Shown here one piece after another: positions 1-36,517 of a stretch of DNA of 42,066 nt. Under the pieces are notes generated by a model, which had not been told where the DNA came from, searched no databases, and saw only the letters and a list, made by a program, of their open reading frames with translations. Source of the stretch: a virus. Taxonomy: Duplodnaviria > Heunggongvirae > Uroviricota > Caudoviricetes. Made by a program: the position numbers and the translations under genes. The stretch lies in IMG/VR virus record IMGVR_UViG_2579778919_000006, positions 1 through 42,066 of that record; one strand, 5' to 3'. Within the stretch, counting starts at the first letter, position 1; the number at the start of each line of letters is the position of its first letter.

Positions 1-390
1 TCACATCACCGGGCAATCATCAAACTCTGCATTCCTGGCGTCATTGATGATGTAAGTAAGCACCCCAAATACAGCGGGTGCAGAACTGTAACCGCCATCA
101 TCTACTGGCAGCGCCTCCTTTCTCCCGTTCTCCAGATTAACGAGGTGGGGTTGAGGATGTGTCCGATATCGCTTGATCCTAAATTCTCCGTCTATCGCGC
201 AGATCAGCAGCGAGCCATCACAGGCTGAAAGTGAGGCATCAACAACAAGCAGCGCCCCCTGAATTATCCCTTCCCTGAAATGTGAACGCGATGCACGCAT
301 GAAATAAGTCGCTGCGGGCTGGCTGATTAACTGCTGATCGAGGGAGATTCGTGTTTCAACGTAATCCGTAGCCGGCGAAGGAAAGCCCAT
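1..390 (-). CDS. UmuD'-like protein (peptidase S24 fold, no N-terminal arm, degenerate serine motif)
   Basis: 129-aa ORF starting M-GFPSPATDY, which aligns to UmuD/ImpA immediately after the Cys-Gly self-cleavage site; LLVVD and GEF-x-IKR motifs kept, but the GDSM serine motif position reads RSHF; stop codon is nt 1-3 of the window; TAATG start/stop overlap with the upstream ORF. Confidence 0.6.
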   Translation of the reverse strand: MGFPSPATDYVETRISLDQQLISQPAATYFMRASRSHFREGIIQGALLVVDASLSACDGSLLICAIDGEFRIKRYRTHPQPHLVNLENGRKEALPVDDGGYSSAPAVFGVLTYIINDARNAEFDDCPVM

Positions 391-629
391 TAGAAAACCC
401 TCCCCATGTTACGCAGGATCCAGTATCGGTTCTCGCTTCCGTTTGTCGTCTTATCAGCGAAGTCAGGCTGGTATCGCTCTATCCATGCATTGGCGTCATA
501 CTGGCTGAAATGCCAGTTTCTATCGCGTAATTCAGCAATAAATTTATTTGTATTAAGACAAAGATAGCCCTTCGGATTCTGTTGTATGGCCGCCAAAAAA
601 GCCGCATGGATATCATATTGACGAGGCAT
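390..629 (-). CDS. hypothetical small protein, translationally coupled to the UmuD'-like gene
   Basis: ORF track 390..647 begins at a GTG; first ATG (629) has a GAGGG Shine-Dalgarno about 9 nt upstream; about 79 aa (MPRQYDIHAAF...); no family recognised. Confidence 0.4.
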   Translation of the reverse strand: MPRQYDIHAAFLAAIQQNPKGYLCLNTNKFIAELRDRNWHFSQYDANAWIERYQPDFADKTTNGSENRYWILRNMGRVF

Positions 630-653
630 AAGTGTCGCCCTCACCACACCATT

Positions 654-673
654 GACTGTATGTATATACAGTG
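654..673. promoter_or_regulatory. LexA (SOS) box in a divergent promoter region
   Basis: gaCTGTatgtatatACAGtg matches CTGT-N8-ACAG; overlaps a TTGACT -35 (652-657) with TATTTT -10 (675-680) for the + strand dinI-like gene; lies about 25 nt upstream of the minus-strand ORF start. Confidence 0.75.
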
Positions 674-714
674 GTATTTTTGTTAGTACAGATCAAGTAA
701 GCGAGTATGATGTG

Positions 715-981
715 ATGTTAGTTGAACTGGTTTATGACAAGCGAAATGTTGAGGGACTCGAAGGGGCCAGAGAGATCATTCTGGCCGAGCTGACGAAGCG
801 GGTGCACCAGATTTTCCCTGATGCCGAAGTGAAGGTGAAGCCGATGCAGGCAAATGGCCTAAATAGCGATGCCAGCAAAAGCGATCGGGAAAAACTGAAC
901 CGCATGCTGGAGGAAATGTTTGAAGAGTCCGATATGTGGTTGGTTTCAGAGTTCCCGACTGTTCGCCAGGTTGGCCTATAA
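715..981 (+). CDS. dinI: DinI-family SOS protein (MsgA/DinI-like)
   Basis: MLVELVYDKRNVEGL...EEMFEESDMWLVSE matches the DinI/MsgA family as I recall it; LexA box 45 nt upstream; the track ORF starts further upstream at 652. Confidence 0.8.
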   Translation: MLVELVYDKRNVEGLEGAREIILAELTKRVHQIFPDAEVKVKPMQANGLNSDASKSDREKLNRMLEEMFEESDMWLVSEFPTVRQVGL

Positions 982-11671: not shown

Positions 11672-14188
11672 TTACCTGCGATTGTTCGCATTCCAGATAA
11701 GCCCACCGGGCTGGATTGCCCTGGCGATACCATCGTTGACAGATTTGTTAATCACCTGCTGATACGCCTTACCCAGCCTGTCTCCGTCATTTTGCTGCTG
11801 TGCGCCACCGGAGGCATTCTCGACGGTCACAGGCGCGTACACGCTCACCCCGAAAGGTGCTGCAGCGGGACCTGTGCCACTGCCCCCGACAAGCCCTCCT
11901 GTGGCGTACCCTTTCATCATCCGGTAAAGGTTGCCGACGCCGATCCGACTGGTAGCCTCTTTGGTGAAAACAAATTCGCCACGGTGAACGACACCTGCGG
12001 GTTCATATTTCCCACCCGAACCGGTGAATCCCCCGCTGGCAAACCCCAGCGCCGTGGAGGCTGAATCTACCAGTCCGGTCATTGCCTGCTTCAGCAGAAT
12101 TTGTGTCAGCATGGAGAGCGTGGAGCGGGTAAAGTCAGCCCAGTCAGCCTTTCCGCGTGTCAGCATGTCTGCCATATTCTGCCCGATGCCATCAAACGTA
12201 CTGGTGGCAACCGACTTCATCTGGCCATAAGCATCTGAAGCGGAATCAACATAATCTGCCCATGCGGATTTGGCCCCGGATTGCCAGTCGTCCCGCAGCT
12301 TATCCTGCTCGGCGTAATACGCCTGCAGCGCCTGCAGCTCATTCTGATAACCAGCGTCGTTCTCCGAACCGCCACCATTTTTCCAGCCCTGAAGAAGCTG
12401 GGCCTCCTCATTGCGGCGTTGTGCTGCACGACTGCTCATACCAGCACTTTCCGCAAGGGCTCGGGTTTTCTCGCCGATCTGCGTGACGTATTTTTGGGAC
12501 GTATCCTGCAGGCGGTTAAGCCGCTCCTGCGCCACTATCTGATCGCCAAGCTTCGCATTCAGCTCCGCACGGGAAAGCACCTCACTTTTACTGGCCAGCA
12601 GGGATTTTTCCTCAGCAGAAAGCGTTCGGGTCTTCGCGGCCTCTTCCAGAACCGTAAAGCGGGACTGCTGACGCCACAGCTCCTGACGCTGCTGGCTGAT
12701 GGTGTCATTGATGCTCTTATGCTCCTGCAGGGTGCGCAGCTGTGTCTGTAGCTCCAGCGTCTGGGCACTGGCCGTATCGGTGGCACGGGCACCTGCGGGG
12801 GTTCTGATTGCCGGGGTCTTCTTCGGCTTTTTAAGGGTGTCTTCGTACTCTTTTTTCGCGGCAGCCAGGTTGATGTTGTAGTCAGCCTGGAGGATCCGCC
12901 CCTCTTTCAGCGCCTTGTTGAGCTCGCTCTGCCTGGCCGTGTATTTCTCCAGTGCCGTCTGCGTTTTGGCATAGTTTGCCTGTGCCTGCGCAGCATACTT
13001 CTGGCGATCCGATTCCGCAGCCGCTTCGCGCGATGCATTCTCTTCGTTCGCCCTGGCAATTCCCGCCTGCTGCTGCGCCATATCCAGCGCAAGCCTGGCC
13101 GTTTCGCGGTCATTCCAGAATCGGGCGCGAGCCTCATCATTGACATATCGGTCACCTTTACGCAGGTTCCAGATTTCATCAGCTTTTTTGAACGCGGCTT
13201 CGGCTTTTGCCACCATCTCCTGCGCGGTGTCAGGTCGGCCAATATCGAGGGCTGCATCCCACATCGACTTGAAGGCGCGCTTCAGGGAGTCCGCTGAAGA
13301 CTCTATCGTCCCCATATTGTCGCGGATGGCTTTGGTCTGATCGTTGAATCCGGCTGTAGCCGCCTCGTTAGCCGCCTGCAGTGCGCCAGCCTCATCACCG
13401 GCACGCTGCAGCTGCGCCACATGGGCAATCTGTTCTGCGGTAACGTTATGGAACTGCTGGGCCATCGCGATCAGGCCCGATGTCGGGTCAGTTGCGAGCT
13501 TGCCGTAGGCTGCAGCGACTTTCTCCACCGGCACGCCGGAGGCATCAGTAAACCGCGCCACCGCCTGGCTCATTTCATCAAAGCGCGAGCCAGTACGCAC
13601 ACCTGCATTGATAAGCTCGGTCAGGGCTTCACTGGTCTGGTTGAACGTTAGCCCCGCTGCCTGTCCGTTCCGCGCCAGTGCCAGCATGCGGTCAGCTGTC
13701 AGTCCGGCTGTGTTCCCCGACAGTACCAGCGTTTTGTTGAAATCAGACAGAGTGGAAGAGCCCTGGTACCAGGCATAGAACAACGCGCCCGTTGCAACGG
13801 ACAATGCACCAATGCCGACCATCAACGGGGAAATCGTCCCCAGCAACGCCCGGAATGTCGGAATGATCCCGCCAAAGGAGTCCTTAACCTGACCGCCCTG
13901 CTGAAGCAGAATCAGCCAGGGGTTCTGCCCACCCGCCAGCTGCGTGGCCACGTCAGTAAACTGCGCCGGGAGCATACGCATCGCTGCGTTATACTGACCC
14001 ACTGAAATACCGGCCTTACGCGCGGCGTTCTCCTGGCGGCTGAAGGACTGCTGGATACGTAACGCTTCATCGTTTGCCGTATTGCCGGTCTGTTTTAATT
14101 CTTTTTTGACGTAGCTGAGCTGCTCGTTGAATTTTGTCGAGTTAACGTCAAGGTTAACGACCAGATCACCGACTGCCGTCTGAGCCAT
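11672..14188 (-). CDS. H: tail tape measure protein H
   Basis: 838 aa, long helical Ala/Gln/Glu-rich protein after the G-T pair. Confidence 0.85.
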   Translation of the reverse strand: MAQTAVGDLVVNLDVNSTKFNEQLSYVKKELKQTGNTANDEALRIQQSFSRQENAARKAGISVGQYNAAMRMLPAQFTDVATQLAGGQNPWLILLQQGGQVKDSFGGIIPTFRALLGTISPLMVGIGALSVATGALFYAWYQGSSTLSDFNKTLVLSGNTAGLTADRMLALARNGQAAGLTFNQTSEALTELINAGVRTGSRFDEMSQAVARFTDASGVPVEKVAAAYGKLATDPTSGLIAMAQQFHNVTAEQIAHVAQLQRAGDEAGALQAANEAATAGFNDQTKAIRDNMGTIESSADSLKRAFKSMWDAALDIGRPDTAQEMVAKAEAAFKKADEIWNLRKGDRYVNDEARARFWNDRETARLALDMAQQQAGIARANEENASREAAAESDRQKYAAQAQANYAKTQTALEKYTARQSELNKALKEGRILQADYNINLAAAKKEYEDTLKKPKKTPAIRTPAGARATDTASAQTLELQTQLRTLQEHKSINDTISQQRQELWRQQSRFTVLEEAAKTRTLSAEEKSLLASKSEVLSRAELNAKLGDQIVAQERLNRLQDTSQKYVTQIGEKTRALAESAGMSSRAAQRRNEEAQLLQGWKNGGGSENDAGYQNELQALQAYYAEQDKLRDDWQSGAKSAWADYVDSASDAYGQMKSVATSTFDGIGQNMADMLTRGKADWADFTRSTLSMLTQILLKQAMTGLVDSASTALGFASGGFTGSGGKYEPAGVVHRGEFVFTKEATSRIGVGNLYRMMKGYATGGLVGGSGTGPAAAPFGVSVYAPVTVENASGGAQQQNDGDRLGKAYQQVINKSVNDGIARAIQPGGLIWNANNRR

Positions 14189-28642: not shown

Positions 28643-29593
28643 ATGATTTTTATTAAAAACGGCAATAGCTTTGATCGCATTAATGACTGGACAGAAATTC
28701 AAGCTCGGGAAAGCTATCATTCCAGGCTGGAACTGACCGATCAACAATTATCCGATGTTTTTGGTTATTATGATGACCTCCCGGAAGAAATCCCGTGTGG
28801 CAAGTCGAGCTGTCGAACAGGCCATAAAAAAGGGTTTCTTGTTCTTACTGAGGATGGTCTGGAGACGAACCTGGGTCACGTTTGCGGTACAAAAGTCTTC
28901 GGTATAGCATTTGAAAACCTAGCCACTGACCTCGAGAAAAAGGCAAATTTCCACAGATATCTAACAGCCCTCAAGGAAGCCAAGAAAAATATTTTTCTCC
29001 ATTACCAAGCAAAAGCCAAAATCGAAGCCAGTGAACCATCATTAGAATGGGTCGCACATAAAATTTTAGATTTAAGAGATTCTAAAGTAGTTGGCCGAGC
29101 CGGGAGTCAAGCTTTGAAACGTATGGCTGCTTTAGGAGATGGAAAAGTTTTACTTCCCAGAAGGAAAACCAAGGAAGAAATGCAGTTGTCGAATGTTATG
29201 TCTCAAAAACCTTCCGATAACGAAGATGAAAATGCTGAGGATAATGTAAAACCACAATTCATCGACGAAGTAATTGGCATTGTTCGTAATCCTGAATGCC
29301 TCCTCAACGATTATAACATAGCGCTAATCTTCGAAAGAGATATTCGCCTTGTGCTGGAAGAACTCAATAATTGCAATCCTGACGATATTCCTGAGAAGAA
29401 GGTCATGTCATTAGGATTAAAAGTTTCCAGGCTGAATGAAAGATTTCAATTCCTTCAGGATCGTTTTGAGAAAGCATGTATATATCTCACAAAGGAAAAC
29501 TTTAAACCTTTAAATCATCAACTACATTTGAAAAAATCAATTAGCAATAAAGATAAGGCCCTTTTCAGTTCTTTCGTTAACTCGCTGCCATAA
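28643..29593 (+). CDS. hypothetical 316-aa protein, AT-rich cargo gene antisense in the late leader
   Basis: ATG-initiated ORF, by eye clearly more A+T-rich than the flanks; Lys/Glu-rich helical protein with a Cys/His cluster (PCGKSSCRTGH...HVCG); hairpin terminator at its 3' end. Confidence 0.5.
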   Translation: MIFIKNGNSFDRINDWTEIQARESYHSRLELTDQQLSDVFGYYDDLPEEIPCGKSSCRTGHKKGFLVLTEDGLETNLGHVCGTKVFGIAFENLATDLEKKANFHRYLTALKEAKKNIFLHYQAKAKIEASEPSLEWVAHKILDLRDSKVVGRAGSQALKRMAALGDGKVLLPRRKTKEEMQLSNVMSQKPSDNEDENAEDNVKPQFIDEVIGIVRNPECLLNDYNIALIFERDIRLVLEELNNCNPDDIPEKKVMSLGLKVSRLNERFQFLQDRFEKACIYLTKENFKPLNHQLHLKKSISNKDKALFSSFVNSLP

Positions 29594-34623: not shown

Positions 34624-34732
34624 AAAAATACCAAAAGTTATTGAACACAAGGAAAGAGTATAACCTTGAATAACTTTATGCAATAACTTATCGTATTTGC
34701 CACTTAATAACTTTTTGTATAGGCTTATTGGT
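34624..34732. promoter_or_regulatory. immunity-region operator/promoter with repeated AATAACTT motifs
   Basis: three direct copies of AATAACTT (34669, 34682, 34706) and one inverted copy (34636-34643) between divergent cro-like and cI-like starts. Confidence 0.5.
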
Positions 34733-35431
34733 ATGAACACATTCTCAGATCGTCTTCAAAAAGCGATGGTTGACGCTGGCCTTACACAGGCAGAATTAGC
34801 GATGAAAGTTGGGGTTTCGCAACCAGCTATCTGGCGCCTTGTTGCAGGCAAAACCAACACAACACGTAAGCTGGTTGAGATTGCGAATGCGCTGGGTGTA
34901 AGCCCTGAATGGCTTTCTACCGGGAAAAATCATGTACCCCACAGACAGGGGTATGTGATAGAGACTATGCCCGACAGGGAAGTAAAGGATAACGCTGGCA
35001 TATTCAGGGTCGAAGTTCTTGACCTTTCGGTGAGTGCTGGGCCTGGCACGTTTATGCTTTCAGAATATGTTGAGGTTTTACATGCTATAGAGTTCACTAC
35101 TGAACACGCAAAATCCCTTTTTGGAAATCGTAGTGAAGATGTCGTAAAAGTAATGACAGTCAATGGCGACAGCATGGCCAGCACATTCAATTCCGGTGAT
35201 CGTGTCTTCGTTGACATTTCCGTCCGACACTTTCTAACAGATGGTGTATATGTCTTTGTTTTTGGTAAAACATTTCACCTAAAACGACTCCAGATGCAGG
35301 GAAACAGGCTAGCAGTGTTATCGGATAACCCAGCATATGAGAAATGGTATATCACGGAAGAAAACCAGGATGACCTTTACGTGATGGGTAAAGCCATAAT
35401 GCACGAATCAATCAATTACAATAGGCTCTAA
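34733..35431 (+). CDS. cI: CI-like repressor (HTH plus S24 LexA-like peptidase domain)
   Basis: N-terminal HTH (LTQAELAMKVGVSQPAIWRL), Ala-Gly in the linker (SAGPG), GDSM serine motif and KR lysine motif. Confidence 0.85.
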   Translation: MNTFSDRLQKAMVDAGLTQAELAMKVGVSQPAIWRLVAGKTNTTRKLVEIANALGVSPEWLSTGKNHVPHRQGYVIETMPDREVKDNAGIFRVEVLDLSVSAGPGTFMLSEYVEVLHAIEFTTEHAKSLFGNRSEDVVKVMTVNGDSMASTFNSGDRVFVDISVRHFLTDGVYVFVFGKTFHLKRLQMQGNRLAVLSDNPAYEKWYITEENQDDLYVMGKAIMHESINYNRL

Positions 35432-35632: not shown

Positions 35633-36064
35633 ATGAATACTCAAATCACCGTAGCCAAAACCATCGGCAAAAGAATATTAAATCAAAGATCTTCGCTTCG
35701 ACTCTCTCAGGATTTTTTGGCTGATCATCTTGGTTTAACAACCGAAACCATTAACAACTGGGAAACGGAAAAAACAGTTCCGTTTGCTGACCAGTTAATC
35801 CAATTGGCTAACATTCTTCATTCTGATGTTCTGTGGCTCATTTCAGGCAACGAGCAGTGCGGTGAATTTACAGAACCAACAAGTATTATAACGTCCAATC
35901 AACTTAACTCATGGTCTGCTGATATTGGCAATTGCAGAATGGCTTTATCTAACGCTATGGATTGCATGCCTCCGGAATTGTCGGCTATCGGTACACTAAC
36001 TATCGTTTATGAAAAATTAGACGACTTGCAAGAAACCATCTGCAAGCAAGCCGACAAAATTTAA
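35633..36064 (+). CDS. XRE-family HTH protein
   Basis: HTH segment LSQDFLADHLGLTTETINNWE; C-terminal 60 aa unassigned and contains Cys-Gly (NEQCGEF); by eye A+T-rich. Confidence 0.6.
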   Translation: MNTQITVAKTIGKRILNQRSSLRLSQDFLADHLGLTTETINNWETEKTVPFADQLIQLANILHSDVLWLISGNEQCGEFTEPTSIITSNQLNSWSADIGNCRMALSNAMDCMPPELSAIGTLTIVYEKLDDLQETICKQADKI

Positions 36065-36124: not shown

Positions 36125-36517
36125 ATGAAAATGCAAAATTCCGTCGCAATTAATCAGCCAGTTAAAACACCTCAAATGCTGTTCGGATCTGACAACATTA
36201 ATGACTTTGGCAACCGCGTTCAAAGCTGCCGGATGGAAGGTGATTCAATGCAGCCGACCATAGAACCATGTGAGGTTGTGGCTTTCGTTGATTGCGGTGG
36301 ACGTGCGCTTACCTCTGGCATTTATGTTTACACAATGGATGCTTTTGGTCGCCCATGCCTTTTCATTAAGAGAATCGAGCCATTAGCTGATGGCTCATTA
36401 AAAATCATCTCAGATAACCATCATTACGAAACTTTCACCCTCAACACCAATGAACAGAAAGAAATCAAAATTCACGGTCGGGTAGTCGCTTCTTTGGCTG
36501 TGAGGCGCTTCGTATGA
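36125..36517 (+). CDS. stand-alone S24 (LexA/UmuD-like) peptidase domain protein
   Basis: MEGDSMQPTI serine motif and FIKRI lysine motif, no HTH domain; AGGAAA Shine-Dalgarno. Confidence 0.6.
   Translation: MKMQNSVAINQPVKTPQMLFGSDNINDFGNRVQSCRMEGDSMQPTIEPCEVVAFVDCGGRALTSGIYVYTMDAFGRPCLFIKRIEPLADGSLKIISDNHHYETFTLNTNEQKEIKIHGRVVASLAVRRFV

Follow-up and report, generated by a model that had tools for sequence, protein, structure and literature searches.

The DNA analysed here, hereafter the window, has 42,066 nucleotides (positions 1 to 42,066 of virus record IMGVR_UViG_2579778919_000006) and is an integrated lambda-like prophage with tail genes, a Q antiterminator, a primase-helicase, a Cro-like protein, CI and a tyrosine integrase, the stop codon of which falls on the final base of the window. 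Our subject is the SOS-type module in positions 1-981, i.e., the accessory ("moron") end of the prophage between the tail-fibre gene and the attachment site, where three genes lie round a single intergenic region. On the minus strand there are a humD-family gene (129 amino acids; 1-390, ATG at 388-390, stop codon TGA at 1-3) and, upstream of it, a conserved gene for a 79-residue protein, called p79 here (390-629, ATG at 627-629, stop codon TAA at 390-392), and on the plus strand there is a dinI-family gene (88 amino acids; 715-981, ATG at 715). The p79 stop codon overlaps the humD start codon as TAATG, and a Shine-Dalgarno sequence precedes each of the two minus-strand genes. That of humD, GGGGAGGG at 398-405 and read from the sequence, is formed by the conserved Met-Gly-Arg codons inside p79, at a junction conserved across loci, and that of p79 (GTGAGGG, 638-644) has its GAGG in the same place in the homologous loci. 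As homologues of p79 all begin with MPR, the ATG at 627-629 is fixed. A preliminary description of this DNA, made from the letters alone, had reported this divergent module, and all its coordinates, the TAATG overlap and the stop codon in the first three bases of the window proved correct when checked on the sequence.

By profile and alignment, the 129-residue protein is a bona fide member of the known HumD family, an armless and pre-activated homologue of UmuD'. It scores 219.2 bits (cut-off 120) against the NCBIfam equivalog NF051876, "HumD family translesion DNA polymerase", with residues 1-129 on profile positions 1-129, and 89.8 bits against the UmuD family NF007621, which is under the cut-off of 110, so that it does not qualify as UmuD proper. 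It is 71% identical to HumD of phage P1 and 64-69% identical to N15 gp26, phiKO2 gp23 and HK140 gp28, and an identical Escherichia coli protein (RefSeq WP_023062968.1) has been named "HumD family translesion DNA polymerase" by the annotation pipeline PGAP. The best match among solved structures is UmuD' (1umu, E = 3e-22), and hhalign gives an identity to UmuD' of about 41%. A search for UmuD homologues gave only close relatives (at least 76% identity), which limits the profile comparison. More than 400 clusters at 90% identity preserve the full length of the HumD frame, and many of the alignment columns are invariant.

The preliminary description held that this UmuD homologue starts exactly where mature UmuD' begins, and this is borne out by the phmmer alignment, in which Gly2 is aligned with Gly25 of UmuD (8gmt), residue 1 of the 1umu chain, as well as by the full-length equivalog match. 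The family trait of a start at the equivalent of UmuD Gly25, with no N-terminal arm, is thus present, and FPSP stands at index 2 in 100 of 120 HumD clusters. A hidden arm encoded from an upstream start was considered and rejected: the 129-codon open reading frame (ORF) is preceded by the p79 coding sequence in another frame, no cleavage site of its own (Cys-Gly or Ala-Gly) was found on an arm or linker, and the longer database versions of HumD, which span 148-223 amino acids, are either translations of the LexA-box region or p79-like fusions. In the 148-residue entries (P0271, P0275, P0298 and P0353), the first 19 residues (…IQYLYC…) translate the LexA box and promoter, and on this basis these entries are start-codon miscalls with no arm. 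Two entries from contigs of Salmonella and others (P0288 and P0289; 167 and 223 amino acids, with 427 and 112 member sequences) join HumD in frame to a divergent p79-like N-terminus and bear the name "LexA family transcriptional regulator"; by their sequences, they resemble a frameshift that became fixed at the C-terminus of p79.

The state of the S24 active site is less simple. The segment ASGDSMIDGGI of UmuD corresponds to ASRSHFREGI in the 129-residue protein, so that RSHF does occupy the GDSM position, as had been noted, within a segment shorter by one residue, and Gly58, Asp59 and Met61 of UmuD are not kept. The place of the missing residue depends on the program: phmmer puts the gap after the helix and pairs Ser60 with His37 (posterior about 0.6), whereas MAFFT and hhalign put it before the helix and pair Ser60 with Ser36 (confidence about 0.5). 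Columns were counted over 121 sequences, i.e., 120 HumD clusters plus the window protein. The column of Ser36 holds Ser in 89 and Thr in 28 of them (117/121 for either), with Thr in 23% of HumD members, including N15, phiKO2 and HK140, and that of His37 holds His in 111. The lysine region is kept, as also had been proposed, since Lys73 (GEFRIKR) is aligned with UmuD Lys97 (GEFTVKK) in every alignment, and Lys is found there in 119 of the 121. In distant armless homologues (Hafnia yong1, Aeromonas pAEv1818 and Pantoea G19), the serine position is taken by Tyr, Gln and Thr or, in the other register, by Cys, Ala and Val, and Lys97 is replaced by Arg, Arg and Ala, respectively. As regards the earlier term "protease-dead", the GDSM motif is degraded, and the loss of Ser60 itself depends on the alignment: MAFFT and hhalign keep a Ser36/Lys73 pair, which goes part of the way to what the preliminary description had named as a refutation, and phmmer does not. 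A protease-dead HumD is plausible from these comparisons, and, as HumD has no arm, the question of self-cleavage is moot.

GDSM is intact in the two further S24 proteins that the window encodes, at 34697-35431 and 36125-36517, again in agreement with the preliminary description, and CI of the prophage combines a helix-turn-helix (HTH) with an S24 domain in which GDSM is preserved. Downstream of CI, a 143-residue protein of the HTH/CI-repressor type (35633-36064, plus strand) is followed by a 130-residue S24-only protein (36125-36517, plus strand) with GDSM and Lys intact. By its domain layout, this pair resembles a CI split between two genes; in PADLOC, the 143-residue protein had only weak HTH matches and the S24-only protein had none.

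The intergenic region carries a LexA (SOS) box, CTGT-N8-ACAG, at 656-671 (CTGTATGTATATACAG), common to both divergent promoters, and the 20-mer GACTGTATGTATATACAGTG matches the LexA consensus TACTGTATATATATACAGTA at 17 of 20 positions. The bare pattern is weak evidence alone, with two occurrences in the window against 0.58 expected. The second (13708-13723) has a GC-rich spacer and lies inside an 838-codon ORF (11672-14188), and by this context is most likely a chance match. Stronger evidence comes from conservation: when the 95 nt before p79 were compared in 29 other loci plus the window, all 30 loci in which this upstream DNA could be read had a LexA box, with no more than one mismatch, 16-26 nt upstream of the p79 ATG, which is far beyond chance, and the box is conserved in HK140 and mEp390. 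For the dinI-family gene, a sigma-70 promoter is predicted at 652-680 on the plus strand (TTGACT, 17 nt spacer, TATTTT with an upstream TG; 9 of 12 consensus matches in the promoter scan), in an arrangement conserved in HK140 and mEp390, and the box falls between its -35 and -10 hexamers. The predicted promoter of the p79-humD pair (668-696, minus strand) has its -35, TTGATC, at 696-691 and, after a 17 nt spacer, its -10, CACTGT, at 673-668, which overlaps the left arm of the box; in most related loci, TTGATC likewise lies 17-18 nt upstream of TACTGT or CACTGT, again the left arm. The box would therefore overlap promoter elements in both directions, as is expected of a member of the SOS regulon. 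The claim of an SOS-type, divergent module with a LexA box between the dinI-family gene and the minus-strand pair thus stands on both position and conservation, and LexA control of both directions, although we infer it from DNA, is well supported.

In eight loci without dinI (L015, L020, L024, L025, L029, L031, L050 and L051), a second copy of ATTGATAGG is found about 21 nt upstream of the TTGATC -35, so that the two copies form a direct repeat spaced two helical turns apart. Judged by its position, the second copy could be another promoter or operator.

The 88-residue protein encoded on the other side of the box scores 79.6 bits against the Pfam family DinI (PF06183; cut-off 24.2, E = 2e-22) and 40.7 bits against the NCBIfam DinI equivalog NF007893, under the cut-off of 111, and PHROGs places it in phrog_189, "RecA filament binding protein DinI". 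By these scores it is a DinI-family paralogue, and not DinI itself. The same gene is found in HK140 and mEp390, where the homologues begin at the ATG that corresponds to 715, and TTG at 652 was rejected as a start.

No match for p79 was found in Pfam, NCBIfam or PADLOC, and PHROGs assigns it to phrog_3893, a family of unknown function. The family is tight and belongs to Enterobacteriaceae. It comprises 159 clusters at 90% identity, and, of 1.8 billion sequences searched, 163 representatives reached E <= 1e-3. An AlphaFold2 model of p79 (predicted local distance difference test, pLDDT, of 89) has the order helix-strand-helix-helix-strand-strand of a winged helix, and p79 is confidently predicted to be a winged-helix protein; helix 3 is, by sequence, not notably basic. 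To Lxr of P1, p79 is unrelated. In a survey of p79 loci in 30 species-representative genomes, an ORF beginning with MGFPSPA or a close variant was coupled to the p79 stop codon via T[AG]ATG in 28, of which two were of the HumD type (123-129 amino acids), most of the others had about 105 amino acids and a few were truncated to 48-78 amino acids. A dinI gene was found in only 7 of the 30 loci. Since p79 almost never occurs without an armless S24 protein, and HumD occurs without p79 in P1, N15 and phiKO2, we take p79 to be, most likely, an accessory of the armless S24 protein, either as its partner or as its regulator, and p79 may interact with HumD. Of the whole module, p79 is the least-known part.

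As follows from the survey, most p79 genes are coupled to the protein of about 105 amino acids rather than to HumD, e.g., in mEp390 and Klebsiella phage RothD. This type keeps MGFPSPAxDY, the lysine (in FAKL) and the acidic tail (loci L008-L033; L002, 3710-4030; L050, 2740-3057), and it is no longer detected by the Pfam Peptidase_S24 profile. On these features, it appears to be an undescribed, further-reduced UmuD'-like family. The tail of HumD itself (amino acids 121-129, window positions 1-27) reads EFDDCPVM in 106 of 120 clusters, and that of the short type (ORFs downstream of p79 in L007-L033) reads DDIPL, DDGCPF, DDELPI or DDDDCPVM. An acidic-hydrophobic C-terminal tip is thus common to the armless clade, and UmuD is without such a tip. 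These tails resemble DDDIPF, the C-terminal hub motif (SSB-Ct) of SSB, which binds single-stranded DNA (PMC5872125).

Since the humD stop codon lies at the very edge of the window, the preliminary description had left room for a umuC-like polymerase gene further left. None was found: left of the module there are attP and then int in HK140, and host genes in the E. coli chromosomes that carry an identical module, so that umuC past the left edge was rejected. A tblastn search with UmuC of phage Oslo found no match either in the window or in some 45 related loci. The absence of a cognate umuC alongside is itself a trait of the HumD family, and the umuC-carrying phages Oslo and PHB10 encode a full-length UmuD with arm and intact GDSM.

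The first 1080 bases of the window have about 81% DNA identity to the end of HK140 that runs from the tail fibre to attP, and they are 100% identical to the chromosome of E. coli MEI4O1-23 (L003); leftward of the identical module, the E. coli chromosome has a small YnaM/YnfT ORF and a truncated gene of the host, and then yecD and aspS. The identical 129-residue protein is indexed in 224 contig blocks, and in all eight of the places shown the order was tail fibre, DinI, HumD and host or other genes, with p79 called in seven of the eight. Beyond about position 1080, the tail-fibre gene diverges from that of MEI4O1-23 (479 amino acids in the window, 419 there), and, on this comparison, a mosaic recombination boundary is marked at the dinI/tail-fibre junction. 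Between dinI and the convergent tail-fibre gene, at 1039-1078, there is a GC stem (CCGCCG … CGGCGG) followed by T8, which, to judge by its form and place, is probably a bidirectional terminator; the terminator scan missed it because its loop has about 20 nt. Elsewhere in the window, a 316-codon ORF (28643-29593, plus strand), for which Pfam and PADLOC gave no match, lies on the opposite strand downstream of the Q antiterminator gene and may be a cargo gene.

The closest described counterpart is HumD of P1, which likewise has 129 amino acids, an M-GFPSPA start, the IKR lysine and an EFDDCPV tail, a similarly degraded GDSM (DSHH in P1), a LexA box upstream and no cognate umuC. According to the GenBank record of P1, HumD "functionally complements E. 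coli UmuD'", and a LexA site for lxr/humD is annotated there; humD has been reported to be LexA-regulated (PMC9603915), and in PMC7092418, which cites McLenigan et al. 1999, P1 HumD is described as a shorter UmuD that is already activated. In P1, a plasmid prophage, humD is a single gene divergent from lxr (190 amino acids), whereas the humD considered here comes second, after p79, in an operon that diverges from the dinI-family gene, and the prophage is lambdoid and integrating, with the module at its att end. Of the linear plasmid prophages phiKO2 and N15, the former has, as here, a divergent dinI-like gene, a lexA binding site and a UmuD-like gene annotated after the tail genes (gp22/gp23), and in the latter the start codon of gp26 has a LexA box, TACTGTATAAAAAAACAGTT, 12 nt upstream, but neither has p79 between the box and the UmuD'-like gene, and N15 also is without dinI there. 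The same three genes in the same order, adjoining attP and int, are gp26-gp28 of HK140, annotated as "RecA filament binding protein DinI", "hypothetical protein" and "UmuD-like protein", while in mEp390 (gp24-gp26) dinI, the box and p79 are kept and a divergent UmuD'-like protein of about 105 amino acids replaces HumD. E. coli UmuD and the plasmid proteins MucA and ImpA, which are accessory subunits of DNA polymerase V, share with the 129-residue protein the core of the S24 fold, the GFPSPAxDY motif and SOS regulation. UmuD differs from it in having an arm of 24 residues in which a Cys-Gly bond is the cleavage site, in retaining GDSM and in being encoded beside umuC, and the present protein differs from UmuD by its extra conserved acidic C-terminal tail. 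The impCAB operon also combines a small gene with homologues of umuD and umuC. The module is therefore of an already known kind, and its novelty was overrated in the first reading, because the family, the LexA control and the dinI pairing have already been annotated in P1, N15, phiKO2 and HK140 and appear in the literature (PMC7092418).

Taken together, the evidence speaks for a LexA-controlled module that supplies a ready-cut HumD to work with host UmuC in synthesis of the DNA polymerase V (Pol V) type, and we regard this explanation as likely. In an undamaged lysogen, LexA would hold both divergent promoters off; upon DNA damage, activated RecA (RecA*) would trigger LexA cleavage and both promoters would fire. 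Rightward transcription would then yield the DinI-family protein, a presumed binder or modulator of RecA filaments (PMC9926225), and leftward transcription would yield p79 and, by translational coupling, HumD. Made in the UmuD' form, HumD would dimerise and join host UmuC and RecA* for Pol V-type translesion synthesis, and in this way would bypass the slow RecA*-mediated cleavage of UmuD, as reported for P1 HumD. The partnership with host UmuC and RecA* is expected by analogy, as the phage has no umuC of its own.

Several points weigh against this explanation. P1 HumD reportedly complements strongly only from a high-copy plasmid, and the functional data come from that protein, a relative with 71% identity. 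The consensus promoter scan of the window alone gave no good minus-strand promoter, CACTGT being a weak -10, and the AlphaFold2 model of HumD (57-sequence alignment, pLDDT of 43) is too poor to place Ser36 or His37 relative to Lys73. Moreover, a role as a simple surrogate of UmuD' leaves unexplained the strongly conserved, family-specific EFDDCPVM tail, the conserved His37 and the presence of p79. A further reading, which we hold to be unlikely, is that the conserved unit consists not of dinI and humD but of an SOS-induced cassette in which p79 is translationally coupled to an armless S24-derived protein, and which would plug into the SSB/RecA*/UmuC network or would act as a split LexA-like regulator, beyond a role as a Pol V surrogate.

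The other explanations, in falling order of our confidence, are that HumD is a decoy, that it is part of a split regulator or antirepressor, that it is a protease acting in trans, and that its gene is a remnant. In the first of these, HumD would mainly decoy or modulate the RecA*/S24 network instead of serving as a polymerase subunit: it would occupy the groove of the RecA filament or heterodimerise with host UmuD or the C-terminal domain of CI, and together with the DinI-family protein would tune the cleavage of LexA, UmuD or CI, and hence the timing of induction. UmuD, LexA, CI and DinI do bind the same elements of the RecA groove (PMC9926225), the module joins a DinI-family protein with an S24 dimerisation fold, and the relatives of about 105 amino acids, which have lost S24 sequence recognisable to Pfam and keep the N-terminal peptide and the tail, are hard to fit to a strict Pol V role; but the P1 record and PMC7092418 credit HumD with UmuD' complementation, and with dinI in so few of the p79 loci the pairing is not obligatory, so that we think a decoy unlikely. 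That prophage induction is governed by p79 and the armless S24 protein together, as a regulator in two pieces resembling LexA or CI or as an antirepressor under LexA control, we find improbable. The idea draws on the predicted winged-helix fold of p79, on the in-frame fusions bearing the name of a LexA family regulator, and on small binders of S24 regulators such as DdrR for UmuDAb and gp7 for LexA (PMC11332147), as well as on the Gifsy prophages, in which LexA-controlled small genes by dinI homologues are antirepressors (PMC3121763). The loci of Gifsy GfoA/GftA, 186 Tum and N15 AntC indeed resemble the present one in having a LexA box, a dinI homologue and a small gene at the prophage periphery (PMC3121763), but here p79 lies on the strand opposite to dinI and is coupled to an S24 protein, and CI is of the cleavable type, with HTH, S24 and GDSM intact, so that no antirepressor is needed. 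Neither a sequence relation of p79 to the antirepressors nor a cognate repressor that RecA cannot cleave was found: a tblastn search of 50,697 phage records gave only p79-type "hypothetical" genes among the 40 of 47 matches listed, these being from lambdoid and Klebsiella/Enterobacter-type records, with none named 186, N15 or Gifsy. Furthermore, the fusions look like frameshift products and helix 3 of p79 is not notably basic, both of which speak against a regulator.

More doubtful still is that HumD retains a working Ser36/Lys73 dyad and cleaves S24 substrates in trans, e.g., the arm of host UmuD in a heterodimer. UmuD cleavage is intermolecular (PMC9926225), MAFFT and hhalign pair Ser36 with Ser60, and Ser or Thr at position 36 and Lys73 are nearly universal in the family; against this, Thr replaces Ser in almost a quarter of the members, including N15, phiKO2 and HK140, Gly58, Asp59 and Met61 are lost from a loop one residue shorter, phmmer sets His37 at Ser60, and the distant armless homologues have other residues at the serine position and Arg or Ala for Lys97. 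That the humD ORF is a pseudogene, the remnant of a decaying umuDC operon, would agree with the lack of umuC, the degraded catalytic motif and the place at a prophage end adjoining attP, and is effectively refuted by conservation: the full-length frame with its many invariant columns persists in hundreds of clusters, the gene has its own Shine-Dalgarno sequence, translational coupling and a conserved LexA box, and the P1 orthologue has been reported to be functional. We give it next to no credence.

The module shows how temperate phages place accessory genes under host SOS control where the prophage ends. With a UmuD' made pre-activated, lysogens could gain faster translesion synthesis and mutagenesis, independent of RecA-mediated cleavage, a point of relevance to mutation under stress and to how antibiotic resistance evolves. 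The idea has been known since P1 HumD. The fresh angles are a predicted winged-helix protein, p79, genetically tied to armless UmuD'-like proteins across prophages of Enterobacteriaceae, a short UmuD'-like variant that is present in most p79 loci and escapes profile libraries, and a C-terminal tail, similar to the tip of SSB, that is common to the whole armless clade.

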